Below, piece after piece: positions 1 through 60,928 of a stretch of 64,000 nt of DNA (its first letter is position 1; each line of letters begins with the position of its first letter). The DNA comes from Ginglymostoma cirratum (taxonomy: Eukaryota), in NCBI GenBank assembly GCA_024137785.1, contig JAHRHZ010000012.1, positions 56,852,066 to 56,916,065 of the forward strand, read 5' to 3'. The translations under genes were made by a program, and so were the position numbers. Below the pieces are notes generated by a model that was given only the letters and a program-made list of their open reading frames with translations, was not told the origin of the DNA and searched no databases.

Positions 1-140
1 CCCCCTCTCTCCCTATTTATTTCAGAACCCTCTTCCCCTCCCCCATTTCTGATGAAGGGTTTAGGCCCGAAACATCAAGCTTTCCTGCTCCTATGATGCT
101 GCTTGACTTGCTGTGTTCATCCAGCCCCATGCTTGTTAAC
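1..140 (+). mobile_element. Penelope-like terminal repeat (subfamily A) with minimal hammerhead motif
   Basis: ctgatga-a-ggg-tttagg-ccc-gaaac at 49-73, followed by the tttcctgctcctatgatgctgc...ctgtgttcatccagc tail shared with many copies in the window; runs off the window start. Confidence 0.75.
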
Positions 141-266
141 CAGTGATGGTGATGGTGTTGTTTAGGACCTTATCTGTGAGGTGCACTTCCATGAGTATAA
201 TTATGTCAGGCTTTAAAATAAATCTTTTTTTTAATGATATCTGTATGAAGGATGCTTCAACTAGTA

Positions 267-486
267 GGGAAGCATGAGCTTAGTGGCATAGTCATTGGAC
301 TAGTAATCCAGAGACCCAGATAATGTTCTGGGGATCTAGGTTCCACTGTGGCAGATGGAATTAAAATTCTAAAGTCCTTCTAAAGTCAATGAAACCATTG
401 TCAATTGTTGGAAAAACCCAAGTGGTTCATTAATGCTGTTTAAGGAAGGAAATCTAATCTCCTTACTTGACTTAAATGTGACTCGT
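267..486 (+). mobile_element. tRNA-derived SINE, family S2 (working name)
   Basis: tagtggcatagtcattggactagtaatccagagaccc head and ggttcattaatg...aggaaggaaatct body; similar copies near 10.2, 22.7, 27.5-28.7, 36.5, 49.6-50.5 and 53.1 kb. Confidence 0.65.
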
Positions 487-3400
487 GATGACATTGACAA
501 AGGTTTCTTGTAGGGTGGTCTCCTCCTGTGCCACTCTCCAGAAAGAGGCCCTAATTCCTCCCTCTCATGTCTTCCACCAATACAAGCCTTAATTTCTCCT
601 GTGACATCTCAGTTCCTTCTGGTGCTGTGAAAGACTTTGACACCATCAGTGGGTTTCCCCCATAAAACAACCAGCAGCCTCAGGGAGCCCTAAACAGTCA
701 TACACTTCAACTGACCCATTCATCTCTGCCTCCAACACGTATGACTATCTCAAATTGGACAGAAAACTCACTTTCATGTCAACTAAGGGCTTGTTCTTGT
801 GGAAATCTGAACGTTAAATTAGTTTCTCCTCAGAAGCAGGTTTATGACCTGAAAACTAACATATCCTGTTTCCTGCTTTCATGGTGAAAATTGAAGTTCC
901 TGTTGATATCACAACATAGCTGAATCCATGCAGAGCATGGTTTATGTAAATAATAGCTTCACAAATCTGACAATCAGTAATCAGCAGCAAACTACAGTGA
1001 GCAAAGCAAAGCTAAAAGAACATAATAATAGAATATATGGAAACGTTTCCCATTCCTAACACATATTGTTCTTTAATGTCTTAAATAAGTAGCAATCAGT
1101 GAACAAATCAGTCTATTTTTGCAATTGACAAGATTTGCTGTAATTTCAAGGGCTGTTTAGTAATTGAATGAAAACAGGCTGTCTGTGCTTTGTTAACATT
1201 TGTTTGAAAGTCTGGCATTAATGCAGAATTTTGGTCCCACTCATTGATTGCCATAACTTGAATTTGCCTGGGGCTGCTAAAACAAACACTTGGGGCAAGA
1301 AATTGAGATTATGTCCAGCTGCTTTTTTCTCCATGTGTAACATTAATCTGATTCCAGCTGCGCTGTATTCAAGATTATACCCCCAGCTAACACTATTTCT
1401 TCCTCTCTCACAGTTGAACACTCATTCGCAAGCAGGGGGGTGCATCACCAGTACTATATTTAGGACCATCAATTGTTCTACAAGTGCTTGGTGCAATCTA
1501 TTGTTGTTTCAAGTTGCAAAAGTCTACAGAGTGTGCTGAAGAGATTTTCGTGACTTCAGGGTCTCGAAAAAAGCCAGTTCATCGATATAAATGCACTGGT
1601 AGACATTCCCTTTGAAGTGCACTATGATTTAGAGAATAAACAGAGAGGTCACATCAAGTAGGATAGCTGCTGGAAGTAGGTTGAACGTGAGTGAGGAAGA
1701 TCTCTCAGCAGATGTTCATATCTGCCTATGCTATTGAGGAGCAGGGCTGACGTGTCAGATACAGACATTTCAGTAAAGATGCCCTGACCAAAATCTATTG
1801 CTGTAGCCACAATTATATCCTCCAGTCGGGCTGAGGACTGTATTGTCAGTGACTGTGAAACTTGGGAGAGTGATTAATGGCTATGTACTTCTACCTGGCT
1901 GGAGTTGGAGATATTTGCACCTCCTATCACTTTGCCGTCAACTGTTGCGTAACAGACATCACTGTAGCTCTCCAAATGACAGCTAATTCATTTTAATCTC
2001 TCTTAGCAGTGAGAAGGTGCTTTTGCAAAGAATGCAGTCTTCCCAATTATCCCGGGTTCGTCGTGTAAGAATGCTGTGTGCATGAAATGTTCACAAACTG
2101 AAAGCTATTGTTACCAGGTAAAAACTCATACAGCAGACCATTCACATGCTGAAACATTGTGTCTACCTCCTGCATTCTAGAGAAACCTTCGCACAGTGGG
2201 TGTCAAGAATTATTGAGGTCTGCCGAATTCTGCCTCTGACTTGCCATAAGCTAAACGGTGAGCAGTTTGAGGAGGAGGAGGCAACCAGCCCAGGCTCTTT
2301 CTGCTTGGGATGTCATGGAGAACTCATCTGAGTCAGCAGTAACTGCAAGCCCGATTTGCCCATTCAGCAGCAGTCACTACCTGCCTTCCCTCTATCAGTG
2401 AATTCCCGTTTGTCTACAATTTAGAAATAAAAACAATAATGAATTAAATGTTCCAGACTAACGTTATGAATGAATTCATGTTATATTGCATACAAAAATC
2501 AGACTTAATTCTCACCAGCTGCACACAATTAAACAGTTAAGACATAATTACCCCTAATCACCAGTGTGCATTTCCTAAATGTCTCTTTTGTGTGTCTGTA
2601 GTTAAACTAGTGACTCTACATAGCTCTTCTCTAGTCGCGATAACAGGGCTTGCGAAAGGCTGCTTTTGCAGGATTACCTCAAACAACTCTGGTCCTAAAA
2701 GGCTTGACTGTATACTGTATCCTCTCAGCATGGATGGCACCCATCTCTCTGACAAGCAACAGCTAGGGACAGCTGGAGTGACAGGATAAATGTTGTCTTC
2801 CTGAGAGGGAACATCAGGGTTGTGCCGGATAGAACCACTGATACACTTTTGGTACGGTGTCTTAACAATTCTTGTAATCTGCTGGAGAACAGATCACTAG
2901 ACTGCTAAACCCTCCAAGTCCCATTGCAAAGTGCGATTCTCAGCCATGAGGGCAGTAGGCTGGGCTCGTATGGCAGCACACAGATATTGGTAGCTGCTAC
3001 TTCAATAGAAGCTGAGATTTTGACAATTAGATCACGGTTGGGTTCACATGCATGCAAATTGCATTGGCCACCTCTTTCATGCTGGGATTGAAGTGCAGAG
3101 TAAAACCCTGTGTCAATTTGCTCAAGGATTCTTTTTATGTTCCTGGGCAATGCACACAGTTCCTCTGGCAGCCCTGCCAATGCACCGAGCATTTAGTCAT
3201 CCGTGACTATTAGTTTTCTTCTGTACGCTGCCCTATTGAAGTGCTTATCTGAAGCTCCTGCAGCAGAATTCATGCACAGTCTCAAATCTCTCCAAGCTGG
3301 CATCTTACTCCCTTTTTGACTGAAGTCTACTCATTCCGTGTTTATCATGATGTGCAGATTCCACTTTGCTATAATCCGCTACACTATATGGTCTAACTGC

Positions 3401-3890: not shown

Positions 3891-4233
3891 ACAGGAAGGT
3901 GGGATGTGAGAAAGAGAATCGGGTATGAGATTACTCTTATCTTCAATGGTTTTCACCTCATTGTTGACCATGGCTTCAGGAATAATTGTCCCATCTATGA
4001 CCTACTCTATTCTGTCCATGGGGTTGGATGGGAACAAGGTTAGGATGCTCAGATGGACTCAACCCTCTCTAGTTAACTGCTGACATTTCTGAGTGTGTGG
4101 AAATTTATCTTGCAAGAAAGAAGATGGTGCATGAGTGAATATTTTGTAATTTGTTCCTCATACTCAGATCGCTGGTAATCTGTGCAAGCTGTAAATAGTT
4201 GGTCTGAGACTCGCAGCAATGCTAAATATATAA

Positions 4234-4506
4234 GTGTGGTGTCTCAGTGGTTAGCACTACTGCCTTACAGCACCAGGGGCCCAGGTTCAATTCCACCCTC
4301 GGGTGACTGTCTGTATGGAGTTTGCACATTCTCCCTGTGTCTGTGTGGGTTTCCTCCCACAGTCTGAAGATGTGCAGGCTAGGTGGATTGGCCATGCTAA
4401 ATTGCCTGTAGTGTTTGGGGGGGATTGGTTTGGGTGGGATGATCCAAGGGTCAGTGTGGACTTGTTGGGCCAAAGGGCCTGTTTCCACACTGTGGGGATT
4501 CTATGA
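4234..4506 (+). mobile_element. HE1-like shark SINE
   Basis: A/B-box head (ctcagtggttagcact...ggttcaattcc), central tggagtttgcacattctccc...gattggccatgctaaattgcc, LINE-derived tail ttgggccaaagggcctgtttccacactg...gattctatga. Confidence 0.88.
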
Positions 4507-6143: not shown

Positions 6144-6272
6144 ATAGAAGATGCACAGGTTAACACACTTGAGGAAAGCCTGGCAGAGGAAGTCCAGAGG
6201 ACGCAGGATATCCTGTAGCTGGACTCCCACTGCCAGGTTTCCATCTTGTTTCTTAACCTGTGCATCTTCTAT
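6144..6272. repeat. 129-bp fold-back palindrome
   Basis: atagaagatgcacaggttaa (6144-6163) is the exact reverse complement of 6253-6272; inner arms pair imperfectly; centre caggatatcctg (6204-6215). Confidence 0.9.
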
Positions 6273-8510: not shown

Positions 8511-8613
8511 CCAAAACAAAAACAGGAATTGCGGAGAAACTCTGCAGGCCTGGCAGCACCTGTGGACAGAAAGCAGAGTTAACGTTTCAGGTCCAATGAC
8601 CCTTCTTCAGAAC
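8511..8613 (-). mobile_element. Penelope-like terminal repeat (subfamily B) with intact hammerhead core
   Basis: minus strand reads gtt-ctgaaga-a-gggtc-attg-gacct-gaaacgtt-aac. Confidence 0.75.
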
Positions 8614-10169
8614 TTTCTGGTATTATTTGTTTGATTTTCATGTCTGTCCAGGTAGACCAGGGAGTGGAATAAACAAAAGAGATGTTAAACACCAGACAAT
8701 TCAGCAAGATGGCAACATGAGATGTATTTGTGACATTGTGATATGAATCATCATTGTAAAAGGAGGATGCCACTAAAGTGTGGTTATTGTCTACAAGAGA
8801 AGAAATATGGAGAGCAGTGATATCTGGATCAGACCAGTAGTCAACAATGCAATGATTTTCAATCAAATTGTAGAGGAGTTTGTACTAGGGGTGTTTTCAC
8901 TTTGTAGTCAAGTTGAATGATTAAAGCTGTGGTAAATCATTAAGCTCCAGTCAAGCTTGTGTTTTGTTGGTGGTATGTGTTAATTCAGACAAACTGCAGG
9001 AGAACTGCCACTGTGATAGGGTTAGGATTAGAGTTGGAAAAATGCTGAAAGAGTTTTGTGAGTGCATTAAAAAATAAATCTAAGGTTCAGCCAAGCTCTG
9101 TCTTGTACATTTTGTTCTTACAATTCCTGAATTCCTAGAATGGTCATAAGAGGAAAATGGGATTGGAACTTACTCACAAATCCTGGTCTCACCCTCACTG
9201 AGTGCTGCGTTCCAGCACTACAACCTTGACCATGCGCTGCTTGACCACTCCACTCTTTGCCTGATATAGTGCCCCATATGGAACGGATGTCATTGAGGGG
9301 GATGAGCTTCTTCCTGCCTGAAGTATGAGCATGATGACTTTCTGGGCACCATGCCCGTTCCTGACTACTCCTCTCATTAGCCTGCATATTGAGAGCAGCT
9401 TGAATATTGACCTTAACTAACCATTAACTGCCTCCTAAAGAGCGTCATTTAGCTCAATTTGAGTAAGATTAGTGCGTTGGCCTAGGTCATATAAAATTAC
9501 ATGTGGGCAGGTGGGTGGAGGGAAGTACTTTGAGGAATGTTATGGACCTAGCCCAACTCTAAACCCTCTCACGGGGGATTGTAGCCATGAGTGGACTTCC
9601 AGACCCAGTGGCATTGCAGTATCTGATGGGCCATCTCTCAGCTCCCATGACAGCACAAGCAGCAGCAATGAAATATCAGAAAGCTGCAGTGTAAACTTGG
9701 ACGGAGGCCATGGAATTTTGGTTTGTTTCTTGCCATGTTAGGCAAAAGGGCTCCAGCTGTTGCCATTATGACTATGGATCCTAGGATTTAAGGGAGATTT
9801 CAGGATTTTTACAGCACTCCAGTGATCTGTCCTCCAGCAAATTACTAGGATTATTGAGATACCACAGGGGAACTGCTGGTTGTTCCATGTTTCCTAAGCT
9901 TGTTATCCCAGACAGTACTCATGTTGCTTCTAAACAACAGTGATGTTGCTGTTCACAGAAGGCAAGGAATCCAAAGAACCCAAATCCAAAAATCCAAGTT
10001 GTACTGTATCCAATATTCCATGAAGTCAGAATGGTTGCTTCATGCTTTAGGATTGCAGCCCAGAGGGTGTTCTGATGAATTGTAAAAGAGGAATGGAAAG
10101 GCGGAACAATGGGGATCCGCAGTTATCTTTTGGAAAATCTGAGTATGTTGATGCACTCAGTGAACTGAG

Positions 10170-14110: not shown

Positions 14111-14151
14111 GTGGGAATTATCAAGTTATTCACCACTGAATTAGGAGTTAG

Positions 14152-20233: not shown

Positions 20234-20784
20234 ACATATATATCTTTTTAAGCAGTGGGGTGGGTTTTACAGAGTGCCGTTAACTGAAGCAAGTGTTGAT
20301 TTAAACTCTTCAAATAACGTTATTCTCTAGTGTACAGCATTAGTGGCAGAGGATGGTTCAGTCTAAATGTAAAGTTTCGGAGTACGATGCTGCCTCCTGT
20401 ATTCTGAAAATGAGCCTTATGTGCAGTGGGTAAATTGAATTACAATTTGGCCTGGGTTACCCCTTTATCAAAGGGGTAACAAGGTATGGCCTTAGCATTT
20501 TGTTACCATACAGATGCAAGACAAGAAATAAGTCTGTTTTCAGAATTGGAACTTCATGATTAAAACTAAGATAAATGTTTGGACAACTTGCTAATTTTCA
20601 TGGATAACATTTATCAAAAGAATGATCTATTTATCACGTATAAGACGTGATCAGATTTTGACAAATTTTGAAGCACTATAGATGAGTACATAGTGAATTC
20701 AGTAGATTGCATGCAAAACTGAAAAAATTCCCCAAACTGTGCTGCCATTTAAGTTATTGAATGTATCAAAGTGTTAAGTGTGGA

Positions 20785-21021
20785 CAAAAACAAAAGTTGC
20801 TGGAAAAGCTCAGCAGGTCTGGCAGCATCTATGAAGGAAAATCAGAGTTAACGTTTCGGATCCAGTGACCCTTCCTCAGAACAGTTCTGGGGAAGGGTCA
20901 CTGGACCCAAAACGTTAACTCTGATTTTTCTTCACAGAAGCTGCCAGTCCTGCCGAGCTTTCCCAGCAACTTCTGTCTTCGTTCCTGACTTACAGCATTC
21001 ACAGTTCTTTCGGTTTTTATC
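20785..21021. mobile_element. fold-back pair of subfamily B Penelope-like repeats with 9-bp TSD
   Basis: inverted arms meet at about 20882; minus copy ctgagga-a-gggtc-actg-gatcc-gaaacgtt intact; flanking direct repeat aagtgtgga at 20776-20784 and 21022-21030. Confidence 0.85.
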
Positions 21022-27208: not shown

Positions 27209-27290
27209 TAAAAACTGGAAGAACTGTGGATGCTGTAAATCAGGAACAAAAACAGAAGTTGCTGGAAAAGCTCAGCAGGTCTGGCGACAT
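27209..27290 (-). mobile_element. truncated subfamily B Penelope-like repeat (no ribozyme core)
   Basis: gaactgtggatgctgtaaatcaggaacaaaaacagaagttgctggaaaagctcagcaggtctggc. Confidence 0.75.
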
Positions 27291-27385
27291 ATTAACAATA
27301 ATTATTTAATAATCAGCCATTCATCAGGGATTAACTCTATGGGTTGATTTATATAAAACAAGAAGTCTTATTTATGAAAGAACAA

Positions 27386-27481
27386 GAGATAACACAGTGT
27401 GGAGCTGGATGAACACAGCAGGCCAGGCAGCATCAGAGGAGCAGGAAAGCTGACGTTTTGGGTTGGGACCCTTCTTCAAAA
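27386..27481 (-). mobile_element. subfamily A Penelope-like repeat, mutated core
   Basis: gagataac...gctggatgaacacagcaggcc...gacgttttgggttgggacccttcttca. Confidence 0.8.
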
Positions 27482-27483
27482 AT

Positions 27484-29462: not shown

Positions 29463-30665
29463 ATGTTTTAAGAAAAATAAATTGTTAAAACAGAATAATT
29501 CAGGCTACTTGCTTAGGGCACAAACTTAAAGATTTTGAAGCACAATCCCATTAATCACAAAACACTCCTTTATAAATCCTTAAAATATCCCTGTAATGTC
29601 CCCAAAGGCACACCTCATACAGTACTCACACCAGAAATCCCCTTCTATGACACCGTGACAGGTTTAATTTGACTTCAACTCCCGGTCTAGAAAACCGACA
29701 TCTTCATCCTGGATCAATCACATACCTGTGATTAAAATTTTTCAGCATCATGTAACCTCTTCAGGGTTTTATCCAAACATTTTCAGTCACTAACCCCTTA
29801 CTGTAAGGTAACCTAGTGTTAACAAATCTAATTATCTTTTCCCTTTCTCAGAAGTAACTTCACAAAGAAAAAATTTCTGCAGAACTGCCCAAAACTAAAA
29901 ATAAAATTAAAAACAGCTCTGTCTCTGAGCTGTGGGCATTTCTCCTAAGCTTAAAAATCAAGTCAAGAAACTTCTAACTGAAACCTTGTAGTATAGCTGT
30001 TTACTTTGCCAGGTTGTAAAAAAAGTTCCTAAGGTAAATTTTTAAAAAACCATCAGAATTTGAAATCTAGCCTTTCCAAACATTTTATTTCAAAATCACC
30101 ATGGCTATAGAAAAATTCAATTTATTTATTGACTCTTTCAGAAACAAAGGAGATACCTATATGTCACTAATTCAAAATCCAAACCTGACACAAACAGTGT
30201 TAAGGAGATATAAATCAGAGATATAAATCATCACAACATGCATGCTAATATCAAGATGCAAATCTCACTATCCCTCTTACATTCTATGCTCTAAATGCTA
30301 TCAGCCCATTTGTCCAATATTTCTCTTACTAACGTATGAATAGAAATATGCTTTTAGGACCTTCAAACTGGTTTTGCCTTTCAATAAGAACATAGCCAAA
30401 GTGTATTTAAACTTACTTAACTTCCTTCATTAAATTGGAATGTTTTCAACATTCAAAAACCAAAAGCCATTTTATTCACCCCTGTCAAAAGCACCTTATT
30501 GTTATTCCTGATTCAATCCAGATTGTGAACTATCACACCTGCTTTCCATGGAACAGTCACGGATTATTTCCACAATCTTACTCAAGAGAATGTTTGGAAA
30601 GAATCAAGAAGGCTTGAAGTCAGATGATATCAAGGTGATGTTCTGAAAATATATTCTCCAGGTGA

Positions 30666-30779
30666 GATAACAAGCATGGGGCTGGATGAACACAGCAGGT
30701 CAAGCAGCATCATAGGAGCAGGAAAACTTGACGTTTCGGGCCTAGACCCTTTATCAGAAATGGGCTTATCTCTGATACA
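30666..30779 (-). mobile_element. subfamily A Penelope-like repeat with 15-bp TSD
   Basis: atattctccaggtga duplicated at 30651-30665 and 30780-30794; core reads ctgataa (G8 mutated). Confidence 0.85.
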
Positions 30780-32025: not shown

Positions 32026-32330
32026 GAGTTGGCTTCAGCATATAGTAAAGGCAATTATCATATTAGGCCTGTAGTAGCTACAGAGAAAATCAACAAAAAA
32101 CAAAAACCTACTTAATCTTATCCTTACAAATCTACGTTGCAGATAGATCTACTCATGACAGTATTGTCATATGTGCCCACTGCACAGCCCTTGTGGGAGC
32201 AAAGTCTTACCAGGCTAGATGAGATTGATTCGGAATGGATCCAGCAGCTGAAAACTGGGCATCTATCGATAGCAATCCAAAAACACTCAATAATCTCAAC
32301 AACTTCAAGGACAAAGCAGCTAGCTTAATA

Positions 32331-32562
32331 AAAATTGAGAGAACTGCTGATGCTGTAAATCAAAAAAAAAACAGAAATTGATGGAAAAGCTCAGCAGGTC
32401 TGGCAGCATCTGCAGAAAGAAATCAAAGTCAAAGTTTCGGGATGAGTGACCCTTCCTCAGAGGAAGGGTCTGAGGAAGTGTCGCTTGACCTAAAGTGTTA
32501 ATTCTCATTTCTCTACAGATACTACCAGACCTGCTGAGCTTTTCCACCAATTTCTGTTTTTG
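32331..32562. mobile_element. fold-back pair of subfamily B Penelope-like repeats
   Basis: arms acagaaattgatggaaaagctcagcaggtctgg / ccagacctgctgagcttttccaccaatttctgt; centre gacccttcctcagaggaagggtc. Confidence 0.85.
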
Positions 32563-32574
32563 GTAAAGAGCCAG

Positions 32575-35825: not shown

Positions 35826-36061
35826 GGTTTGAGTAATAGTGCCAGATTTCACAGTGAGCGATGTTAGCAATGTCAGGTATAATATTTCAGATTCCCTGCA
35901 ACTGCAGTATTTTGCTTTAGTGTTCGGAAGATTATATTTTGAAAATGGCTATACTTTAAACTGTCTAGCTAATTTCAAGATAGAATGGAATTGGGGACCG
36001 GAATCTAAAAGGTAGCAGATAACCATTTCTATCTGACTCAAACCCAGAGGCTGAGAATAAC

Positions 36062-36124
36062 TGAGATAACAAGGCGTGGGGCTGGATGAACACAGCAGGC
36101 CAAGCAGCATCATAGGAGCAGGAT
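36062..36124 (-). mobile_element. truncated subfamily A Penelope-like repeat
   Basis: gagataacaaggcgtggggctggatgaacacagcaggccaagcagcatcataggagcagga. Confidence 0.8.
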
Positions 36125-36489
36125 AACTGGATGGATTCCTACAGAATGAAGTCTTGTACTGAAGGAAAATAATAAATTACAATTATGGATGGAGATTTTT
36201 GGTCATTTTGATTTTTTTAAAAAAATCTTTTCTCTAGTTTAGAAGACATATGAGCTACTGAATAATATTTCAACTATTTTGCTTTTAGTCTTTTTTTATC
36301 TTAATAAAAGTCATAAAACTCAAGTTCTCGTTGTGTGATTTTTCCAGTCACTGAAAATTCAGAAGTCATTTGACTATTTATCACAGAGATCACAAAAATA
36401 CTTAAACCTGCAGCAAATGAATGCCTCCCAGTGGGTTTCAATGTCACTGTTGCCTTGAAACTCTTCACTTGTCACTCTTTCTTAAGATT

Positions 36490-37035
36490 CTTTATTCTTT
36501 CACAGGATGTGGCATCGCTAGTAAGGCAAACATTTGTTGCCCATCTCTAATTGTCCTTACTGGTTGGCTGAGAGTTATAGAGGAGTACAGTGCAGATAAA
36601 AGGCCCTCGGCCCATTGAGTCTGCTCCGGTCAAAAACACCTATCTACTCTAATCCCATTTCCCAGCCTTGTTTGCCTTGGCATCACAAGCGCTAAATACT
36701 TCTTAAATATTATGAGGATTTCTGCCTCTAACACCCTTACCGTCAATGAGTTCCAGATTCACACCAAAGTTTGTACATTTCAGAGGATAGTCCTGATGAA
36801 GGGTTTTGGCCCAAAACATTGACTTATCTGCTCCTTGGATGCTGTCTGACCTGCTGTGTTTTTCCAGCCTCACACCTATAGACTCAGAGGGTAGTAAACT
36901 TCATTACTGGAGTCACATCTAGGCCAGATCAGACAAAGATAGTAGATTTCCTTCACTAAAGGCCATTAAGGAACCAATTGTGTGCTTACAATAACTAATG
37001 ATAGTCACAATGGTCACCATAACTGAGACCAGCTT
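36490..37035 (-). mobile_element. SINE family S2 with nested CR1 tail (about 36570-36770) and Penelope-like repeat
   Basis: S2 segments (catttgttgcccatctctaattg; tggagtcacatctaggccaga) interrupted by aggccctcggcccattgagtctg CR1 tail and a hammerhead repeat. Confidence 0.65.
36792..36883 (+). mobile_element. Penelope-like repeat (A-related) with 12-bp imperfect TSD
   Basis: ctgatga-a-ggg-ttttgg-ccc-aaaac; tcagaggatagt (36780-36791) / tcagagggtagt (36884-36895). Confidence 0.75.
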
Positions 37036-37949: not shown

Positions 37950-40400
37950 ATGTGACCACATTGAAAAATCCAGCTAAATCCTCTCAATTTGGACAACAGA
38001 AGGATGATCTCATCACAGAGAGGCATAAGAATTACCATCAAAGGAGTAAATGTGCTCAGAGAGAAGAAACTTATTCTCAGGCGAGTTTTCAACATAGGCA
38101 GAAGCACTGTCAATCATATTTCTGGGAGATCAGACAATACTTTGCATTATGGTTTCAGAGATAGTAGGAACTGCAGGTGCTGGAGGATCTGAGATAACAA
38201 GGTGTAGAGCTGGATGAACGCAGCAGGCCAAGCAGCATCAGAGGAGCAGGAAAGCTGACACTTCAGACCTAGACCCTTCTTCAGAAATCTAGGCCCGAAA
38301 CATCAGCTTTCCTGCTCCTCTGATGCTGCTTGGCCTGCTGTGTTCATCCAGCTCTACACCTTGTTATCTCTAATACTTTGCATTCTGTTGAGACAAATTC
38401 CAGATCAAAGAGCAACAACATATTTAGAAAAAAAAATAAACATTTGCAGAAAATCCAAGGGAAGCACCAAAACTCAAGAACACAATGTAAAACTGTGGCG
38501 AACATCACACGAAGAGAGGAAAGCATGTCCAATGTGGGCAAGCAATGCTGTAACTGTAAGATGCTTGCACACAATTATTTAGCTAGAAAGAAGCAAAACA
38601 ATCCTATAAAAAATGGCTGCTGGGGGAGAAGTCAGAAAGTGATTCAAATTAATCACTCTACCCGACACAACAGGTTGACGTCAGGAGGACTAAATTTGAT
38701 AACTGATTGTGACTGTTAGGCTGCGAAAGCATAGGATCAACTGAATGTGAAGTGTCAGGTTGATACCAATGCTTTGTGTAACACCACAAGCTTTGCAGAT
38801 CTATACAAAGCCACTTAAGCTGCTAGATCTCATAAGTAAGATTGAAGCCATATGATGGAATGATACTCATCACAAGATGACAAATGAAGCTGACAGTCCA
38901 ATGCAATGGAAAGAAAGAAGACCTGAAGTTTCAGGTAGTAGGCATTAAGGAAAAGAGTTAGAACAATCTAAAGCTTGGACTAGTAACCCTGATTATGCCA
39001 GAAGAAATTTGCAGCATTTCATAGACCACTAAGCCATTGACTGACAATTGAATCCCAGATAATTACAAAGGTGTTTTCACTGGTCTTGGAACGCTTACTG
39101 GTGAATTTCATCTCAAGATAGATGAAAGTGTCAGACCAATGCAGCATCAACCAAGAATAGTTCTCACTATTCCAGCCTGAAAGACAAGATGGAAGAGATA
39201 GGAAAGGAGGGCAAACTTGAGGAAGTGATAAATTCTGTAGACTGTGTTAGCAGCATGAAAGCAGTGAAAAAAACTGGAAAATCGAGAGCATACATAGATC
39301 CAGAGGATCTCACTGAAGCTTTGAAGTGAGCTCACTATACCATGCTGACTATTGAAGAACTTTCATCACAACTTTTCAAAGGGAAAAGTTACTTACTACC
39401 CTTGATGTGAAGGGTGGTTACCAGTAAGTGAAGCAGAATGAAACCTGTAGTTTTCTAATTACATTCTGGATGCTATTCTGGAGATACAGGTGATTGCTCA
39501 GGCCTTTTGGCATTCCTACTGCTCAGAAGAGCATCAATGCAGGCAGCAGAGATAGTTAGTGATTGCCCCAGAGTAGAAGCTAGTGTGGATGATTTATTAC
39601 TCTACAAATGTGGAGACATCACAAACCAAAATCAGAAACTAATGTGACTGCTAGAGAAGGCTTGCTAGATGAATCAGAAGCTGAACATGAAAATTATGCA
39701 ACTGAATATTCTTGAACAACAATACAAAAATTATCTATTGACAGCAAAAGGAATTTGCCCAAATCCTGACAGGGTGAGAACTGCAGCAGAAATGCAATGA
39801 TGAATTGACGTGAAAGCAGAAATGAGGTCACCTTGTTGCATGATGCCAGGAAACAGGACTTGGAGCAACTCTTATGTAACAAGGACAAGCAGCACTGCTC
39901 TGACTATCTGGTCTTTAGAATATCTGAGCCATCATCATCATACTAACCATAGAAAGGCTGATGTGGCAGTGAAAATTACCAGAGTACAAAGAAATCCAGT
40001 AAATCCAACACAGGAATCTATAAGGCATTCCTTGAGTGGAGAAATGCCTTGACTGAAGATATGAAAAATAATCCTGTTCAAAAACTGATACCACACTGCA
40101 TCGAATCTATTCTTTCCATAGTGAAAAAAAAGACTGCTGAAGTCAAAATCAAGTGACAAGATCAGGGTGAAATGACAAAGTCAAATTTGATTTTGCTAAA
40201 ATTGCCATGTCATTGACAAAACTGAGCAGTGGCAAATCAGTCAGAGTGCAAACATTCAACGCTTTCAACGAGAGTTAGCTTACATGGAAACTTGTGATCT
40301 ATGTAATGCAGTTGTCACCTCAAATGTAGATAGTGAATGTGAATGACCAGGAAAATCATCACAACAGCAGGCATCTACATACAATTACACAAGCTGTACC
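37950..40400 (+). mobile_element. decayed Gypsy (Mag-like) element: gag, protease, RT, integrase end
   Basis: gag LREKKLILRR and knuckle-like GKQCCNCK..H (about 38535), protease VKCQVDTNALCN (38747-38782), VFTGLGTL.GEFHLKIDESVRP (39070), IDPEDL.EAL..AHYTM.TIEE (about 39295); jumps to integrase C-terminal region at about 39920. Confidence 0.8.
38157..38370. mobile_element. fold-back pair of subfamily A Penelope-like repeats with 13-bp flanking duplication
   Basis: near-perfect inverted arms meeting at about 38287; aatactttgcatt at 38136-38148 and 38372-38384; nested in Gypsy gag. Confidence 0.88.
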
Positions 40401-40705
40401 TTCACTGCAGGCAGTGGATAAGGAAGAAGTAACTTCACCACCTAGATAGAAAACAGATCGATCATCAAGTCCCAGATCTCCTCTGCTTCCCAGCAACTGA
40501 AATAGATCAGCAACAAACAATTACCATGCGAACAGCACTCAAAACAGAAACAAAACTTTCCAAAAAAGGAACATCATCATAGGAATGAGCTGAACCAGGG
40601 AAACATACTATGGTAATGTATACAGCTTCCATTAGGAGACCTGCTCGATTTAGAGACAATGTCTGCAATACATGTGCAGCAAATGATGATAGTAGGACTG
40701 ACTAT

Positions 40706-40797
40706 AGATAACAAGGTGTAGAGCTGGATGAACACAGCAGGCCAAGCAGCATCAGAGGAGCAGGAAAGCTGACACTTCGGGTCTAGACCCTTCTTCT
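40706..40797 (-). mobile_element. subfamily A Penelope-like repeat
   Basis: agataacaaggtgtagagctggatgaacacagc...cttcgggtctagacccttcttc. Confidence 0.85.
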
Positions 40798-41411
40798 GAT
40801 GTTGACAAAATTTCTCTTGATGAATAATCATTTTCTTTGGGACCATGTATATTGGGTAACTTGAATAATTTGTATTTGTAAATGACAGTTCATCCCATTT
40901 AGTTTTTTTTTCAAAGAAATGGTGCTGGAAAAATAGAATTATACCTTAGTGTACAGGTTGGCTTGCTGGGGTCATGTAACCTCTATCTCTTCTGTAAAGT
41001 GCCTTAGCATGCAGTCTGTGGCTGCCATTAAACTCATTTCTCTTGAAGTGAGGCCAGACAAAAAATGTTGTGGAGGTTCTTACTTGGAACTCATATTTAC
41101 AAAGAAACAGCTATACTGCTGTGCCAGAAATGACTCTAAATACTGCATTGTGATTGTGTGATTCAGCTTGATGTTTTTCAGAAAGCTTCTTTTCAAAATT
41201 ATACAAGTTCAAATTTCTCATCAGCGTCAAAAATGATTTTTATCGGGCCCCTTCTCGAAATGCCATGATGTCACCATGTTCCGAGCAATTCTATTGGGAT
41301 ATTCTTAAAGTCAATGCATCAAATTTCAATTTGCTTCATCACATAAAACAGTCTTTGATCTTCTGATGGGCACCAGTCCAATTCTCAAATTAATTTGATC
41401 CTGTAACTACC

Positions 41412-46945: not shown

Positions 46946-49822
46946 TATCTTTGATTTCTCACACGGTAGTCAGTCACCAAAGTGCCAATGTGTTTGGACA
47001 TGGAGACTATCAGTCACAAGCTGGTCCCACAGCTCAGAAGGAAACCTGTGTGCCAAGCAAGATTCTGTCAATTGTTGAGATTGATGATTTTGATATTTTC
47101 ACATGACTTGATAAATTGATTGTCACCTGTTATGATAATGGGCCAATAAAAAGGTTTTTGTTTTTCTGTGCTGTACAACCTATGTGTGTTTGGTCTAGCA
47201 TGGTTTAACATAGAGTTTGCAAAACAAACACTTTAAAATTTACATTGCTGGAGAACCCTAATTCCTCTGTAAACGACCAGAATGAATGTTCTTGCTGAGG
47301 GACCTGTTGGAAGTTTTGAGGACAACCAATGATGATCTTTTGTTGCAATCGGTCAACATCTGATATGGCTTTGTGAGTCTGCTCTGCTAGGCTGTGACCG
47401 AAATGAATGGATGAGGTTTGGAACTGACAGGTTTTTTACCTTGTGGATTGTAATAATATGTAGAACAATGCTAACCACTGGACCAATAAAACAAGGCCCT
47501 GTTGATGTAAAATGTTCATGGATGTCCATCTCAATTAGGTTTATTGAGATTGAAAACTGTAATATCAGTGAAAAGGACCATTGTAAGCAGTTTATCAGGA
47601 ACAGACTGCACTGCATTGTGCCAGTTTCCTGAGTACGCTATGTGTAAAATGGGTAAAGGGATGATATTTGCACTTGGACAGTGCATGTTGTCCATTTATT
47701 TTGGAATATAATGCTTGAAAGGAGGTGAAAGTTTTAACTTTTCTGGCAACATTCAAGTACTGTATCAAATTGACGGTATGTACTATCTAACTGGAGACTG
47801 TAAGCTGTGAAGTTGCAGGTACTGCTTGGGTTTCATTGACGTGCTTGTGTGACTATTTTTCACATTCTTCTGCAAAGCGTTGTGTTTCTCTGGGTAAATG
47901 GATTTATTGCACATTTTAGCGCAATGTCATCTTGTAAAACACAGCTTTTACATATATCACAAATTATTGGACATTATTTTGATGAGTGGGACAAGCAACA
48001 TCTCATACAAGGTTTGGATGTTGTTTGCAGAACCAGTTGAGTCTAGTACCTGAAGACATTTATGGTCAACAATTGCTTCAACCTTATAGTGCTCTGTTAT
48101 AAATTTTCTTGCTTTCAGACTCTCACTGATCAGTGCAATGGATTCAGTTAGTGTGTTCAGTCAGTCCATTTTATATGTTATGTAACATTAACAGTAAGCA
48201 GAGAACCCAGACAATCATAAGTCCAAGATATGATAAAAGTGTAAACAGTTAGTGTTTTTGTGGGATGTGTCAGGTGAGCAAAGATCTTGTCATACTAGCA
48301 TTGGGTTTTTACCCATATCAAATAGAAGCCAGTTGTGTCAACTGGTTAATGGCAGCTAGTTGTTAATAAAAGATGAGAGCAACAGTGGCTATTGTGAAGC
48401 ACTTAACATCAGGCACAACTTGGCCTGTACTCAGCCCACCATGTTCAACACCATCCTGAAAAATAAGTTCTGAGATCACTTCTTGTAAATGCAGCCACGT
48501 TCATGGACAGTGGAACTGTGATTCTTGAAATAGAAGCCATGGCCTCTTCATTCTCCCTCAATTACAACTGAGCTCCACACAATCATCCTTGGCCCTCATT
48601 TCAAGACCCTTGCCTAGCTCTCAGATTAGTGCCACTGTCCCCCTTATCAGCCATTTTCAGTGTCAGAGATTCTAGAGAGTTCAGTCACTAAGGTGACAGA
48701 TTCCAAACTCCAGCCCTACACCCTCCCTCAACCTCTGGAACTCCATCTATCAAACTTGCCTTCCTGCATATACTTGCAAGTATCGGGTCTTTGGAAATCA
48801 TCTTCCCTGTTATGGTCCTTGCTCTCACCAGCATGGACTCCACCCACTGAAAATAACTCCCCTCACATTTCAATGGACCTCACTGTTGGAGTTGCTGCTT
48901 CCGAATGCCAGCTGCAAGAAATGAAATGTGTCACCTTTCAAAACTCGTTCAACCACGTTGCACCCTCCCCCTTGTCACCTACCAACTTCCCCATCTCTTT
49001 GTTGTGCTTTTAGATTTCTTCAAACCAAAAGTAGTCCAGCACAGATGAGAATGGCCACTTTTCTGGTCAAACTAGACTAGTTGGCTTTAATGAGTAAGAT
49101 TGCATTTATTGCATCACTGCAACAATTTACTGATTATATGACTAAAATCCACATTACTAATAAAACTGTTAGGAGCACATTAGCTTCAGATCTGTCTTCT
49201 ATTAGCTTTTGCTTCACTTTCTGGCCAAGTTCCCATAAGTGGGTGGTGCTTACTGTAATACATCAACTGTTAATCCATTCAGACCCATGTACAACATCCT
49301 TCACCTACCAATAGAGGGATAATAATTCCTCTCCCCTCTGTTACTATTCAGCACCCCACATTAACCCTGTAATGCAATTTAAATCAACCACTTTGAGTCT
49401 TGGTTTCAGCAAGAAAAGTTTCATTCAAAAATATGTTAGGGACAGGTTTCTTCGAGATAGCCAAGTAATAGAAAAAATACAAAAGTTTCAGCACTGTTTG
49501 TAATTCTCAATTTAATGCACCTCACACACCCTTCTATCTGAATCTTGGATTTGTTGGTTCCTAGAGCAACTGAACCTTTAGTTCTCTCTCACTTCCATGG
49601 TCTGTGTAGAAATGGATAATTGTTATAACTGAGAGCATCGCTGGCTAGGCCCGCATTCATTGCCCAACCCAGAGGGCAGTTAAGAGTCAGCCACATTACC
49701 AGACATGTAAGGACGGCATTAGTGAACCAGATGGGTTTTTCCACCAATCGACGACAGATTGATGGTCGGCATTAGGCTCTTAATTCCAGATTTTTATGGA
49801 ATTCAAATTCCACCTCTTCCAT

Positions 49823-50420
49823 TGAGATAACAAGGTGTAGAGCTGGATGAACATAGCAGGCCAAGCAGCATCAGAGGAGCAGGAAAGCTGACGTTTCGGG
49901 CCTAGACCCTTCTTCAGAAAAAGAANNNNNNNNNNNNNNNNNNNNNNNNNNNNNNNNNNNNNNNNNNNNNNNNNNNNNNNNNNNNNNNNNNNNNNNNNNN
50001 NNNNNNNNNNNNNNNNNNNNNNNNNNNNNNNNNNNNNNNNNNNNNNNNNNNNNNNNNNNNNNNNNNNNNNNNNNNNNNNNNNNNNNNNNNNNNNNNNNNN
50101 NNNNNNNNNNNNNNNNNNNNNNNNNNNNNNNNNNNNNNNNNNNNNNNNNNNNNNNNNNNNNNNNNNNNNNNNNNNNNNNNNNNNNNNNNNNNNNNNNNNN
50201 NNNNNNNNNNNNNNNNNNNNNNNNNNNNNNNNNNNNNNNNNNNNNNNNNNNNNNNNNNNNNNNNNNNNNNNNNNNNNNNNNNNNNNNNNNNNNNNNNNNN
50301 NNNNNNNNNNNNNNNNNNNNNNNNNTTCCTGCTCCTCTGATGCTGCTTGGCCTGCTGTGTTCATCCAGCTCTAAACCTTGTTATCTCAGATTCTCCAGCA
50401 TCTGCAGTTCCTACTGTCTC
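49823..50420. mobile_element. fold-back subfamily A Penelope-like insertion spanning the gap, 14-bp TSD
   Basis: tccacctcttccat at 49809-49822 and 50421-50434; intact minus-strand core ctgaaga-a-ggg-tctagg-ccc-gaaacgtc at 49890-49917. Confidence 0.88.
49926..50325. other. assembly gap (400 N)
   Basis: run of N. Confidence 1.
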
Positions 50421-50737
50421 TCCACCTCTTCCATGACAGGATTCAAACCCAGGTCCCCAGAACATTACCAGGATCTCTGGATTAACAGTCCACTGATTAT
50501 ACCACTAGGTCACTGCCTCCCTATATTCCCAAGACCCTAACATTGACAGCGCTACCCATCTTTATAGACCATTTTTGTGATACCTTCCCAGAATCCTCCC
50601 CAACTCAACAACAAAGGGCCTGCCCCTCTCTCTCTCTACTATCATCTGATGTCAATTATTATCTGTTGTTGAACGATGCTCTGCGTGAGGGAAGAGCAAC
50701 TGCTATTCTACCCAACTATAAAAAGTACATTACCTTC

Positions 50738-52415: not shown

Positions 52416-52538
52416 GAGCAAATTACTGTAGATGCTGGAATCTGTACTGAAAACAAAAAGTGCAGGAGATCAAAGCGGGTCAGGCAGTATCTGTGGAGAG
52501 AGAGTAAGCTAACGTTTCAACAATTCTTCATCAGAACG
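52416..52538 (-). mobile_element. Penelope-like repeat (subfamily C) with hammerhead core
   Basis: minus strand gtt-ctgatga-agaattgtt-gaaacgtt-agc; acctaa at 52410-52415 and 52539-52544. Confidence 0.7.
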
Positions 52539-53395: not shown

Positions 53396-55696
53396 AATAT
53401 CCTGGATAATTGCTGTTGTGAAAATTTAAAATAAGAATAATCACCATTTTCTAAAATTAATGTCAAGCACAGTAAATGTGCCACGTAAATGTTTGATAAT
53501 GATGCACTAAGATACTGATGTGTATCATGAATTTAAAACTTAAAGGTTAAGCTTTATTAATCTGTTAGTTACTTGGAACAATTCAGGCAGAAATTAATCA
53601 TCAACTGTGATATAATTTCAAATAAGGTCGTTAGCTCTCAAGAGTTTTCCGGTAGACCATCTATAATAAAGCAATTTTTTTTAATACACTTCAATGGCTC
53701 TGCTTTATGTTGCAGAGGAGAAAATATGTGACAGGTAATTTCACAGTTTAAAAACATTGGTTCCTCATTAAACAACAATATTTTTATGGGACTACATTTT
53801 AAAATATACAAAAGATTCAGGATACCAGAGGGAATGTTTGTTTTACATTTGATTAATGATTAACATTATGACAATGCTAGAGCTGAATTTGTTCAAACTT
53901 GCTGTTATCTGCATTGCCGTTATACAGTTTCTTATTTGTCACATGTTGAAGTAAGTGTTAAATGTTTAGTAAAAACCTGGAAAATATAAGGACACAATTG
54001 TTGTGGCGCTTAGTGAAGACTTTCAGGTATAGTTTCTCTGCTTGCTTTCAGTATATTTAAACCAGTGGTATGCTTCATTAGCGGTTATGTTTTATGAGCT
54101 AGTCTGCCTTTCCTCACTTGTACGATTAGTAAACGTAATCATGCAGTAATTATTATAAGTCAAATTCAATACTTTACTGAACCATAGGTAATATTGAAAC
54201 CTACTCACAGATAAATTGAAAATTTAATTTTCTTTGGCACTGACCTCCTGGATCCTTAATTAGTGAATAAAGCAAGAAAGAATTGTTAATTAGTTAATCT
54301 GAACAGTTAGTTAATTGATTCTTTGGTAAGAATTTAAAGAACATTTTCCAAGGTAGTTAGAATTCTAAAATGATTCTAAATCATAGATGTAAATTACACA
54401 TGAGTGCGTGCTGTGTAGAGATGTGTTTTGAATTTGCATTTGTAGAGCTGGAATTTCCTCAGAGCTACTTCAACCCTACCACAATAATGTTTCTGGGAGT
54501 TTGGCAGGAACTCAATTGACATGCATATACAGAGTTTCCCAGTACTTCCAGTGAACTTACACAGGCAGAATAGTCGCAACTTCCGAGAAATTCTGGAAAT
54601 GTCATGGGAAAGTGCAATGTCCTTCGTGTAGGACCACAAACATTGGCAAAAAAAAGTCTGGAATGAGGCAAACCAGAAACTAGTGCTTAGTTTATACTAT
54701 GTAAGTTTTTAAAACCTAGACACTATAGGAGTTGAGAAATTGCTGGCTGGAAATTTGAATCTGAGAGTACCAGAAGGACTGATCTTGTGTCACTATAACT
54801 TCACACAGGATGATCAGTTAATGTGACACTCACTTTGCAGTTTTAGTTCATCTGGTCTATGCAATAAACTTTGAAAAGATCAAGCATCAGATAGAAAATA
54901 GGTATCATTAGAGTTATTTGAAGGGTCAGGCATCCAACCAGCAGGTTAAAGCATTTTGGAAGCTCTCCTACAGTAAAAAAAAATCTTAAAGAAACACTTC
55001 ATGGTACTAGAGGCCTTGTGCTGAGTCCCTGGGAAGGCAGAGGAGTTGGTTACCTATCCTTACAAAAACTTCAACGTAATATGATGAGGAATCCTCAAGC
55101 AAGTTAGAGCCATACTCTGCCATGCTCCTTTACAGTGACAGGCTGACAAATACTTTCAGCATCTGAGTGAGTGTGCCTATCAGCACCTTCCTGCAAGCTT
55201 CTCCATCAAGCTCCTCATCTGAGTTCCGTGCAGAACCTGCCTGCAAGTGTATCTTGCTGTGAACATTACACCTGATGTCCCTGCAACCCACATGCCTACT
55301 TACTGCTCTAGCGTTCGTGCAGTGGCATTGCCTGAGCTGGTAGTTACAAGTCAGATCAAGTCATGAGACATTACATCAGTACTCTTCCTGGGCCTTCTGA
55401 AAGCAGAAAATTGGGAAGGGAATGTGAGGTTGAGGGAACTGAGGTTGAAGTGAGAGTAAAAAGTTCAAGATCATACCATCTGCTGGTTGGGCTTCATACC
55501 AGATAACAAGATGAAGGTGTTCTAGGAGGTGAGAAGGGTCATAATCAGGTACTGAGTACTACAGAATCTGTTACAGCCAGACCATGATGCTAGGAACTAG
55601 GCTCTTCGACAAAGTCAGGAGACGCAGGTGCCCTTGTCCTGCTCTGTTCCCTTCTATAATATACCACCTTGTCTTGTCAGAGAGAGCAAGGGGGGT

Positions 55697-55793
55697 CCGA
55701 AGAAGAGTCACTAGACTTGAAATGTTAACTCTGCTTTTTTCTCCACAGATGCTCCCAGACTGGTTGAATTTCTCAGCAATTTCTGTGTTTGTG
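55697..55793 (+). mobile_element. subfamily B Penelope-like repeat, mutated core
   Basis: ccgaaga-a-gagtc-acta-gactt-gaaatgttaactctgc...ctccacagatgct. Confidence 0.7.
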
Positions 55794-55804
55794 TAAGAGA
55801 GAGA

Positions 55805-56378
55805 GAGCGGACCTGATGAATATGTATAAGATTATGAGGGGGCTAGACAGGATGGATAAAAAACAACTGTTCCCCTTAGTTGAGAGATAAAAGGTACTGC
55901 AGATGCTGGAGAATCAGAGATAACAAGGTGTGGGGCTGGATGAAAACAGCAGGCCAAGCAGCATCATAGGAGCAGGAAAGCTTGACGTTTCGGGCCTAGA
56001 CCCTTCAAGTTCCGCTTTCAAGCACTTACTCCTTAACCTTGAATATTATGACGCTTCAAATGCTCATCCACGTCCATTCTTTCAAAGGCCATAAGTGGGC
56101 ACACTTTTAGGGTGAAGGGTAGGAGATTTAAAGGGAGTCTGAGAAAAAAGACTTTGCATTCAGATAGTGATGGGAATCTGGAATATACTGCCTGAGAGGA
56201 TAGTTGAGGCAGGAAACCTCATGGCCTTTGAAAGAATGGACGTGGATGAGCCTTTGAAGCGTCAAAATATTCAAGGTTAAGGATTAAGTGCTTGAAAGTG
56301 GAATAAATGTTGCTGTTGAGTAGTTCTTTCAATGCAAACTTGATGGGCTGAAAGTCCACTTCTGCATTGTATGATTCT
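55805..56378 (+). mobile_element. CR1 3' end interrupted by a Penelope-like repeat and an inverted duplication
   Basis: tataagattatgagggggctagacagg...ctgttccccttagt resumes at about 56096 (gggcacacttttagggtgaagggtaggagatt) and ends gattctag. Confidence 0.75.
55882..56006 (-). mobile_element. subfamily A Penelope-like repeat, truncated inside the core
   Basis: ctgcagatgctggagaatcagagataacaagg...gacgtttcgggcctagacccttc. Confidence 0.85.
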
Positions 56379-59989: not shown

Positions 59990-60300
59990 GGATCAACAGA
60001 TACGGCGAAGCTGTTCCTGCTTTTAAACAAAATAAGAAGTCACAGATTTAAACTGATGTGCAAACAAAGCAGAGGTAATGTGAGAAAATACTTTTCCTTT
60101 GTCAGAATATGGAATGTTTAGGCAAGAAATGTGGTGAAGGCAGGTTCAAGTAAACCATTAAAGATGATATTGGATTTTAGTTTGGATACAAGTTGTATCC
60201 AGAGATATGGAAACAGCAGAAGATTGGCATTAGATAATAAAGCTGAACCAAATAATACAATTTGGCCTCCTTCTGCACAATAACATACTGTGCACCAGTC
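59990..60300 (+). mobile_element. CR1 3' end (diverged)
   Basis: gaagctgttcc...gtcacagatttaaa...gtggtgaaggcaggttcaa...tggcctccttctgcac. Confidence 0.6.
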
Positions 60301-60834
60301 TTGAGCATTTGCCTTGTTCACCAAAGAATGATTCCATTAAAATCAGTTTTGCTACACAAACAGAACTACCTATGATATTATGACTGTAAGACCAGTGCTG
60401 AAGGAAAAGATCCACATTCTTAGGTTAATGGGACAATTTCTGGAACATGGTATATCAATGTCAAAGGATGACATTCATCTGAATAAAATAGCAGATGTAT
60501 CCATGCAACAGTGGGAAGAGCTTAAAGTAACATGATAAACAGACGCATTAAATTTAATTGAGGTCAGAAAGCGAAAATAGGATTAATAACTGTTGAAACA
60601 GTGATAGAAAGCTGCACAAAAAAATCGTGGTGAGAAAATATTGTTGAAGATAAATGGAACAATATAACAAAGTGAGAGGTGAAAATAGGAAGGGCAAGGA
60701 TTGTTTAAGTAATGAAAAGGGTTCTGACAAATTGGAACAACAATTCCCATGTGAATGTACAAAATGTTCAAAGTAGTTAAGGGGTATAAGTAGTAATGTA
60801 AAACCATGACTTAAGTGCTGACAGGGTTAAGAAA

Positions 60835-60928
60835 TGAAGCACTGCAGATGCTGGAAAGCTGAAAGGAAGAAAACAGGAAATACAAGAAATGCTCAGCAGG
60901 TCAGACAGCTCCAATGTGGAGAGAAACA
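60835..60928 (-). mobile_element. degenerate Penelope-like repeat tail
   Basis: actgcagatgctggaaa...ctcagcaggtcagacagc...tgtggagagaaaca. Confidence 0.55.

Follow-up and report, generated by a model that had tools for sequence, protein, structure and literature searches.

Repeat family in the window

The window analyzed here is a 64,000-nt stretch of the Ginglymostoma cirratum genome (GCA_024137785.1, JAHRHZ010000012.1, positions 56,852,066-56,916,065, forward strand). A copy-derived profile identified 20 repeat copies in the window at E<1e-14, with the next match at E 0.42, and these copies group into 16 insertions, one per 3975 bp, which bears out the original prediction of about 15 loci at roughly one per 4 kb; the five loci cited there were found where it placed them. 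The copies divide into four to five subfamilies (A1, A2, B, C and a divergent A-like group, E). Wherever the 5' end of a copy survives, it carries a minimal type I hammerhead motif, and 14 copies span the complete hammerhead core, which lies about 95-130 bp from the 3' end. The copies and associated features are as follows.

1..138 (+): A2 copy (copy 49), core 49-76, G16.2>A, no tail; pyrimidine-rich 1-48 leaves the window and is common genome-wide
8512..8622 (-): B copy (copy 8610), complete core 8581-8610, G10.1-U11.1 wobble, GUU triplet, no tail
8506 and 8643: 8-bp flanking repeat of B copy 8512..8622
20784..20883 (-): B copy (copy 20879), short arm of inverted pair, complete core 20850-20879
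20884..21021 (+): B copy, tailed arm of the pair with 20784..20883, A6>G, G12>A
20776 and 21022: 9-bp duplication around pair 20784..21021
27209..27285 (-): B copy, tailed, truncated downstream of the hammerhead
27385..27483 (-): A1 copy, no tail, C3>U, G12>A
30663..30764 (-): A2 copy, no tail, G8>A
30651 and 30780: 15-bp duplication of A2 copy 30663..30764
30765-30779: 15-bp spacer beside A2 copy 30663..30764, similar to an inverted tail end
32327..32461 (-): B copy, tailed arm of inverted pair, G16.2>U
32462..32563 (+): B copy, short arm of the pair with 32327..32461, three core changes
32318 and 32569: degenerate duplication around pair 32327..32563, 9 bp with 1 mismatch
36061..36133 (-): A2 copy, no tail, truncated close to where cleavage is predicted
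36791..36885 (+): divergent A-like copy (E), G12>A, G16.2>A, compensatory change in stem I; 12-bp flanking repeat with 1 mismatch
38157..38287 (-): A1 copy, tailed arm of inverted pair, A15.1>G, C15.2>U
38288..38371 (+): A1 copy, short arm of the pair with 38157..38287, begins within stem II
38136 and 38372: 13-bp duplication around pair 38157..38371
40705..40799 (-): A1 copy, partial tail remnant, U4>A, A15.1>G, C15.2>U
49822..49925 (-): A1 copy (copy 49917), short arm of inverted pair, complete core 49890-49917, GUC triplet, 2-bp stem I
49926..50325: 400-N assembly gap, center of inverted pair 49822..50422
50326..50422 (+): A1 copy, tailed arm of the pair with 49822..49925, hammerhead end lost in the gap
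49809 and 50421: 14-bp duplication around pair 49822..50422
52421..52538 (-): C copy (copy 52534), tailed, both core boxes intact, stem II 2 bp
55695..55793 (+): B copy, no tail, U4>C, C15.2>U
55679 and 55800: 9-bp flanking repeat of B copy 55695..55793
55884..56008 (-): A2 copy, tailed, begins within the CUGANGA box
60828..60928 (-): C-like copy, tailed, truncated downstream of the hammerhead

The complete CUGANGA..GAAACGUH pattern occurs four times in the window, compared with a mean of 0.013 and a maximum of 1 in 150 second-order Markov simulations. An Rfam scan of the window returned no hammerhead match at E<=10. Rfam microRNA matches at 20833-20939 and 38225-38336 coincide with inverted pairs, score far below gathering and were rejected. 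Two further hammerhead-like motifs, at 41224(-) and 43461(+), have other flanks, no NUH triplet and no Penelope-like element (PLE) protein signal, and were excluded from the family.

Hammerhead core, stems and predicted folding

At the family level, the repeats have the core boxes, the extra base after A9, G10.1-C11.1 and the palindromic 15.2-16.2, supporting the assignment to minimal type I hammerheads with a palindromic stem III. Core and stem II are intact together in only three of the 14 full-core copies (8610, 20879 and 49917). Thus, among the five motifs originally given as examples, those at 8581-8610, 20850-20879 and 49890-49917 are complete, whereas copy 49, in which G16.2>A turns the palindrome ACGU into ACAU, and copy 52534, with a stem II of only 2 bp, are not. 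In contig data, N7 is variable (36% in sequencing run X1), and the listed alternative letter accounts for <0.5% at C3, G5 and G8.

Covariation was assessed in an alignment of 21 rows, comprising 14 window copies and seven outside loci. Stem I, which lay outside the search pattern, shows two-sided changes in all four pairs and is paired in 75%. Stem II, on which the outside rows were chosen, is paired in 96% with mostly one-sided changes: in three of its four pairs the changes are confined to one side (G-C to G-U), whereas 2 two-sided changes occur in one pair. Compensatory change is therefore present, although the shuffle control is inflated by related rows. Stem II had been described as subfamily-specific but consistently paired; the differences are mostly decay of one stem, and the true covariation resides in stem I.

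The consensus fold of the 3' region in eight tailed copies is weak (-3.2 kcal/mol, two-sided change in 1 of 11 pairs) and single folds do not surpass shuffles, so that a conserved 3' structure was rejected.

Insertion anatomy

Four of the 16 insertions are head-to-head inverted pairs, the copies adjoining at their 5' ends. Across the family there are two shared 3' end points, and eight of the 20 copies carry a tail of 33-38 bp, with one more partly tailed; in all four pairs, the tail is present on exactly one arm. With unit boundaries fixed by eye before the test, exact flanking repeats of at least 9 bp (9-15 bp) bound five of 15 testable units, compared with 0.65% of 2000 random window pairs; they measure 13-15 bp in three units, and 10 units have no exact duplication of this length. 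Three of the four inverted pairs are bounded by an exact duplication of 9-14 bp. The inverted pairs, tails and target-site duplications did not figure in the original prediction. A MITE (DNA transposon) was rejected, given that only one arm is present in 12 of the 16 insertions and that the tail distinguishes the arms of a pair. For a tRNA-derived SINE head, there was no tRNA gene call and no Rfam tRNA match in the window, both of which are weak indicators for decayed heads.

Relative to C3, the 5' ends spread between about +57 and positions beyond -48. Of the 18 resolvable ones, 14 lie at the hammerhead edge (about -10 to +11), and the junctions of all three resolved pairs are among them. Opposite-strand joints at 45-51 in a bisulfite run were disregarded when placing junctions, since reads are clipped there as a result of base conversion. 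The clustering is tighter than random truncation suggests, and it also exceeds that of the invertebrate family, whose copies mostly reach 50-100 bp further upstream. Such ends would be expected if the units were full-length, short, non-autonomous micro-elements mobilized by PLEs, with an RNA starting just 5' of stem I, and nine compared copies indeed have no common upstream sequence beyond 7-8 bp in register. However, in copy 49 at least 48 bp of upstream sequence lead to the window edge, beyond which contigs and reads continue, so that the 100-130 bp unit initially proposed is not closed. Furthermore, in run X1, summed contig depth, which we did not treat as copy number, reaches 4.4 million upstream against 5.0 million in the body, and about 16,000 reads of run X24 connect the core with the upstream tract. 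The unit also lacks a promoter-like head, and a reverse transcriptase (RT) stopping at a folded hammerhead would yield the same pattern. We therefore regard such micro-elements as improbable.

The retrozyme-like character initially suggested fares worse. Non-LTR retrozymes are likewise short non-coding repeats that carry a type I hammerhead and are related to PLEs, and the available part of a 2026 preprint describes retrozymes in one cartilaginous fish, with solo monomers, as derived from PLE ends (PMC7229834; 10.64898/2026.07.22.740005). In these sources, as far as available, non-LTR retrozymes consist of head-to-tail tandem units, whereas the window copies stand alone or in inverted pairs and show a PLE tail and target duplication. 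No head-to-tail arrays occur in the window; the pairs are inverted, on opposite strands, and there is no canonical stem III. The lack of tandem arrays argues against the window repeats being retrozymes. In addition, a monomer freed by hammerhead cleavage and spread as circular RNA would begin after the cut, but the copies retain the core upstream of it and at most two of 18 begin near the cut site. A retrozyme origin is thus very improbable.

Decay of the core

Core CpG positions are changed in 14 of 56 alignment cells (25%), compared with 96 of 1319 (7%) elsewhere (p=6e-5), and the CUGA-GA box is changed in 5 of 66, compared with a background of 87 of 1183 (p=0.81). With the core CpGs decaying above background and the box unprotected, there is no selection at the level of copies: core decay is neutral and CpG-driven. 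In the bisulfite run of a relative, 11,254 loose read ends yield a consensus in which both core CpGs remain and every other G reads A, which indicates that these CpGs are methylated; another 4,927 loose read ends lack both.

These patterns bear on the earlier suggestion that intact copies could cleave or terminate intronic transcripts, and on the related possibility that some have been co-opted by the host for this purpose. Three copies do have a complete core and stem II, and in solo copy 8610 stem II is predicted to form with a probability of 0.8-0.9; nine of 12 solo copies are in minus orientation, but this bias is not significant (p=0.15). However, besides the core decaying at the background rate or faster, the predicted probability of stem I is at most 0.23 in all eight folded contexts, and that of stem II in copy 20879 falls to 0.00 when the inverted arm is included. 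The intact copy 20879 is thus predicted to be locked inside the hairpin of its inverted pair, and copy 49917 probably has the same layout across the assembly gap. Minimal hammerheads were inactive as monomers and weak as dimers in the accessible portions of the published work (PMC4209133). Pfam searches of the 150 longest among the 277 ORFs of at least 60 aa in the window gave no matches and identified no host gene. With three of 14 cores complete, the predicted folds make cleavage of host RNA by window copies unlikely, and co-option appears extremely doubtful.

Probable origin in Penelope-like elements

In the window, no RT or GIY-YIG remnant was found with five and then 28 PLE-type proteins (tblastn best E 0.007), and a profile search was empty. 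With no parent ORF in the window, we infer PLE membership from the anatomy of the insertions and from loci elsewhere. The same core yielded 44 matches in 43 metagenome loci, of which 18 lie 66-164 bp downstream of the end of a PLE-type ORF, representing two families and several redundant assemblies. Three of six such upstream ORFs exceed the Pfam GIY-YIG cut-off, and an RT domain is present in 18 of 28 longer homologs. These ORFs resemble what we take to be the Neptune type. Between the outside loci and the window, nucleotide similarity does not go beyond the core. Scanning viral and prokaryotic genome contigs for the pattern gave no matches.

According to the available text of Craig 2021, PLE features include truncation at the 5' end, an inverted copy alongside and a tail of 30-40 bp on one side (PMC8557442). 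Inverted pairs, one-sided tails, duplications and the core behind GIY-YIG ORFs elsewhere thus support the Penelope origin originally put forward. Partial head-to-tail tandems, which are frequent in PLEs and form pLTRs around a full copy, do not occur in the window, which also lacks the longer copies at which they would be expected. The 20 repeats are likely 5'-truncated 3' ends (pseudo-LTR pieces) of several PLE families, headed by a hammerhead, mostly mutated and predicted to be inert.

This class of elements was already described in 2014, when Cervera and De la Pena reported minimal hammerheads in the pLTRs of metazoan Penelope-like elements (PMC4209133). As far as its available parts go, that report matches the window in the CUGANGA and GAAA boxes, the extra base between A9 and 10.1, G10.1-C11.1, the palindromic 15.2-16.2 and the short stem I. 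It also describes mostly solo, dispersed copies left by truncated PLEs, more than one family in each genome, and neighbors on opposite strands. Stem II is 5 bp here, compared with 7-8 bp in the schistosome families, and, if the window is representative, a density of one insertion per 4 kb would exceed the 4,000-9,000 motifs of coelacanth and frog. The text parts and two supplement files of that report that we covered name no shark. Our literature search, with Repbase/Dfam and most subscription papers outside its scope, found no shark-specific description, which does not establish absence from print.

A mechanistic parallel comes from Poseidon, a PLE of the green anole, for which the available sections of Frangieh 2024 tie the tail to two RT start sites and report uncleaved RNA as the main substrate and a protein-assisted ribozyme (PMC11167929). 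Both Poseidon and the window copies have two 3' end points about 30-40 nt apart, an optional tail and a distance of about 100-130 nt downstream of the hammerhead; in Poseidon, the parent is known and the ORF begins inside the hammerhead, whereas the window copies have no ORF.

Proposed mechanism and implications

A parent RT plus GIY-YIG protein would nick the target, and reverse transcription would begin about 95 or 130 nt downstream of the hammerhead, at either of two sites separated by 33-38 nt, which would produce the short and the tailed 3' ends. As the core is retained in the copies, the template would be mostly uncleaved RNA, as in Poseidon. The RT would then halt early, often at the hammerhead, a second inverted copy would be added in some events, and repair would leave a 9-15 bp duplication. 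The parent's own motif would function either as a dimer or assisted by protein. After integration, the two core CpGs would be methylated and deaminated, leading to the loss of G12 and stem III. More speculatively, and with a rather low probability, the uncleaved hammerhead might, in this lineage, serve as a stop and template-switch signal for the PLE RT, or mark the 5' end of a short non-autonomous RNA.

The repeats, then, are ordinary transposon debris of a known class. The inverted pairs are a predicted source of long double-stranded RNA and likely a cause of assembly gaps. Thousands of such copies would record the start and stop points of PLE reverse transcription, and if their 5' ends pile up at the hammerhead genome-wide, this would bear on the role of the poorly cleaving minimal hammerhead in PLEs. 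If the stop/template-switch or short-RNA reading is true, the motif would shape insertion geometry apart from cleavage, with mass production of 95-130 bp micro-copies and hairpins starting at the ribozyme edge, and these genomes would be very rich in hammerhead motifs.

Repeat census

Repeat finding and BLAST within the window, which is repeat-rich, has a GC content of 39% and contains a single 400-N gap, located the family on both strands. A profile made from the copies recovered 20 of them at E < 1e-14, with nothing further below E 0.4. Four adjacent pairs bring these to 16 insertions, which cover 3.3% of the window at an average of one per 3975 bp; this bears out the original prediction of a dispersed hammerhead repeat family. 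The pattern CUGANGA..GAAACGUH occurs four times, versus 0.013 expected from 150 simulations. Identity within subfamilies is 84–94% (A1), 94% (A2) and 71–90% (B), E and C being single copies, and A and B are 56–69% identical. A Pfam scan of the 150 longest of the 277 window ORFs of at least 60 aa returned no domains, and no host gene was identified.

Further dispersed repeats lie at 4239–4506, 12824–13135 and 51087–51232; at 18383–18554, 25347–25700 and 34504–34925; and at 265–342 and 50446–50523. These families are putative SINE-like elements and CR1-type LINE 3′ ends, and the repeat content of the window would fit a cartilaginous fish. A MITE-like hairpin with long near-perfect arms (6145–6271) has a weak Rfam microRNA match, far below the gathering score.

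Conservation and decay of the core

Fourteen copies span the whole core, a 15th that starts within the first box being excluded from the count. Every core base is kept in four (8610, 20879, 49917 and 52534, named by position near the hammerhead); stem II of 52534 has only 2 bp, which leaves the motif complete in three of 14. Of the five examples originally proposed, these three stand, 52534 falls short in stem II and copy 49 has lost the palindrome.

In an alignment of the 14 copies with seven metagenome loci, chosen by a core pattern that fixes stem II and leaves stem I free, stem II is 96% paired and its changes are nearly all one-sided, the pattern that C-to-T decay would leave. Stem I is 75% paired with two-sided changes in all four pairs (shuffle control 0/500, a result inflated by the relatedness of the rows). 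At N7, 36% by depth of the contigs from sequencing run X1 show variation, versus <0.5% for the other letters listed for C3, G5 and G8, which fits selection acting on source elements.

The copies themselves show no selection. Scored against the majority base of each subfamily, the CUGA-GA box changes at 7.6% versus a background of 7.4% (p = 0.81). Both CpGs of the motif lie inside the core (C11.1–G12 and C15.2–G16.2), and substitutions affect 14 of their 56 cells versus 96 of 1319 elsewhere (p = 6e-5). In X24, a bisulfite run from a related organism read to about 1 in 100, a consensus built from 11,254 loose read ends retains G at both core CpGs while all other G read as A, which indicates methylation; another 4,927 loose ends have neither CpG G and are unmethylated or previously deaminated. 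A15.1>G accompanies C15.2>T in three of four such copies [38284(−), 40798(−) and 32470(+)] from two subfamilies, and could be a source variant (two A1 copies) or a mutation beside the deaminated CpG.

Insertion anatomy

The copies end at two 3′ points, a short end ~95 bp from C3 (the core base used as reference) and a tailed end 33–38 bp beyond; eight are tailed, one partially so and 11 short, and exactly one arm is tailed in all four head-to-head pairs. An exact flanking repeat of at least 9 bp brackets five of 15 units (copy 49, whose flank lies outside the window, excluded; unit boundaries set by eye beforehand), versus 0.65% of 2000 random pairs, and is absent from the other ten. In three units it reaches 13–15 bp, one of them bracketing the gap-spanning pair. 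Craig 2021 (PMC8557442) lists 5′ truncation, a neighbouring inverted copy and a 30–40 bp tail on one side as features of Penelope-like elements (PLEs). In vitro, Frangieh 2024 (PMC11167929) showed the tail to be the stretch separating two RT start sites, uncleaved RNA to be the main substrate and hammerhead cleavage to require protein.

The tail motif CAGCA...CAGT is invariant in the eight tailed copies (e.g. 38157–38190) across A1, A2, B and C, otherwise 56–69% alike. It is a candidate signal for protein binding or for the start of RT, though covariation lends it no support. A stretch of 15 bp similar to the end of an inverted tail (30765–30779) separates an element's 5′ end from its duplication, and a 22-bp spacer occupies the equivalent position beside 8610. 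The gap at 49926–50325 occupies the centre of an inverted pair that has a 14-bp duplication on its flanks, and probably results from the palindrome. Within 55695–56303, copies 55697(+) and 56007(−) converge on one common 90-bp fragment, and an unrelated 86-bp inverted repeat (56010–56095 and 56218–56303; 94%) begins exactly where 56007 is truncated on its 5′ side.

Among 18 placeable copies, 14 have 5′ ends at about −10 to +11 of C3, one further upstream and three downstream; upstream sharing was compared in nine copies, and positions for A1, B, C and E are approximate because an upstream reference is absent. This clustering might reflect a fixed 5′ start, but upstream-extended copies are abundant: 11,871 X1 contigs matched window 1–200, with depth high up to position 1 and dropping ~ten-thousand-fold past 140 (depth sums not being copy numbers), and in ~16,000 X24 reads the upstream tract continues into the core. 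The family thus extends upstream of the core in this lineage. In an invertebrate family, most copies extend 50–100 bp further upstream than those of the window. As the source of the clustered ends we favour a putative halt of the RT at the hammerhead while this is folded and uncleaved. Window positions 1–25, a pyrimidine tract that finishes with CAG and lies 24 bp upstream of C3, look like a splice acceptor; according to Cervera 2014 (PMC4209133), a fly PLE intron ends at helix I.

Potential for cleavage of host RNA

Cleavage of host RNA by these copies is unlikely. In Cervera 2014 (PMC4209133), a single minimal hammerhead shows no cleavage and dimers low cleavage. Because the two copies of a pair occupy opposite strands, a single transcript would carry both a sense and an antisense arm; 20879 and its partner are predicted to form a −174 kcal/mol hairpin with a stem II probability of 0.00, and 49917 likely has the same inverted layout across the gap. 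The solo copy 8610 forms stem II in the predicted fold, but this stem closes with a G-U pair, the triplet is GUU, stem I has a probability of about 0.2, and the closest complete same-strand copy is 12 kb away.

Search for a parent element

Within the window, tblastn with five and then 28 PLE-type proteins yielded no parent (best E 0.007), and a profile search for a PLE-type protein was empty. The core pattern had no matches in viral and prokaryotic collections and 44 in 43 metagenome loci, 18 of them 66–164 bp downstream of where a PLE-type ORF ends (two families, redundant assemblies included). Three of six ORFs tested passed the GIY-YIG cut-off, and 18 of 28 longer homologs contain an RT domain. 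Since these loci resemble the window in the core only, they identify the kind of element that carries the motif, not the parent itself.

Head-to-head inverted pairs also occur in the invertebrate PLE family (loci L013, L033 and L043), with the junction at the hammerhead's edge in L033 and L043, as in the window pairs. Inverted arms of ~460 bp, 75% identical, lie at 41049–41538 and 43161–43622 around 1.6 kb without a Pfam match. Each has a hammerhead-like CUGAYGA..GAAA motif without the NUH triplet and no PLE protein signal; they may be an old DNA transposon or an older PLE pair.

Class assignment

The original prediction allowed a Penelope-derived or retrozyme-like origin. Tandem arrays, the defining trait of non-LTR retrozymes, are absent from the window. 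The copies show every testable sequence-level feature of PLEs with minimal hammerheads, an RT/GIY-YIG ORF not being found in the window. The 2014 description (PMC4209133) covers the class, solo-motif dispersal, the presence of several families in one genome and neighbours on opposite strands; a shark-specific description was not found in the searchable literature (most subscription papers and Repbase/Dfam being outside its scope). These repeats work like, and very likely are, 3′ remnants of PLEs that bear an endonuclease and minimal hammerheads.
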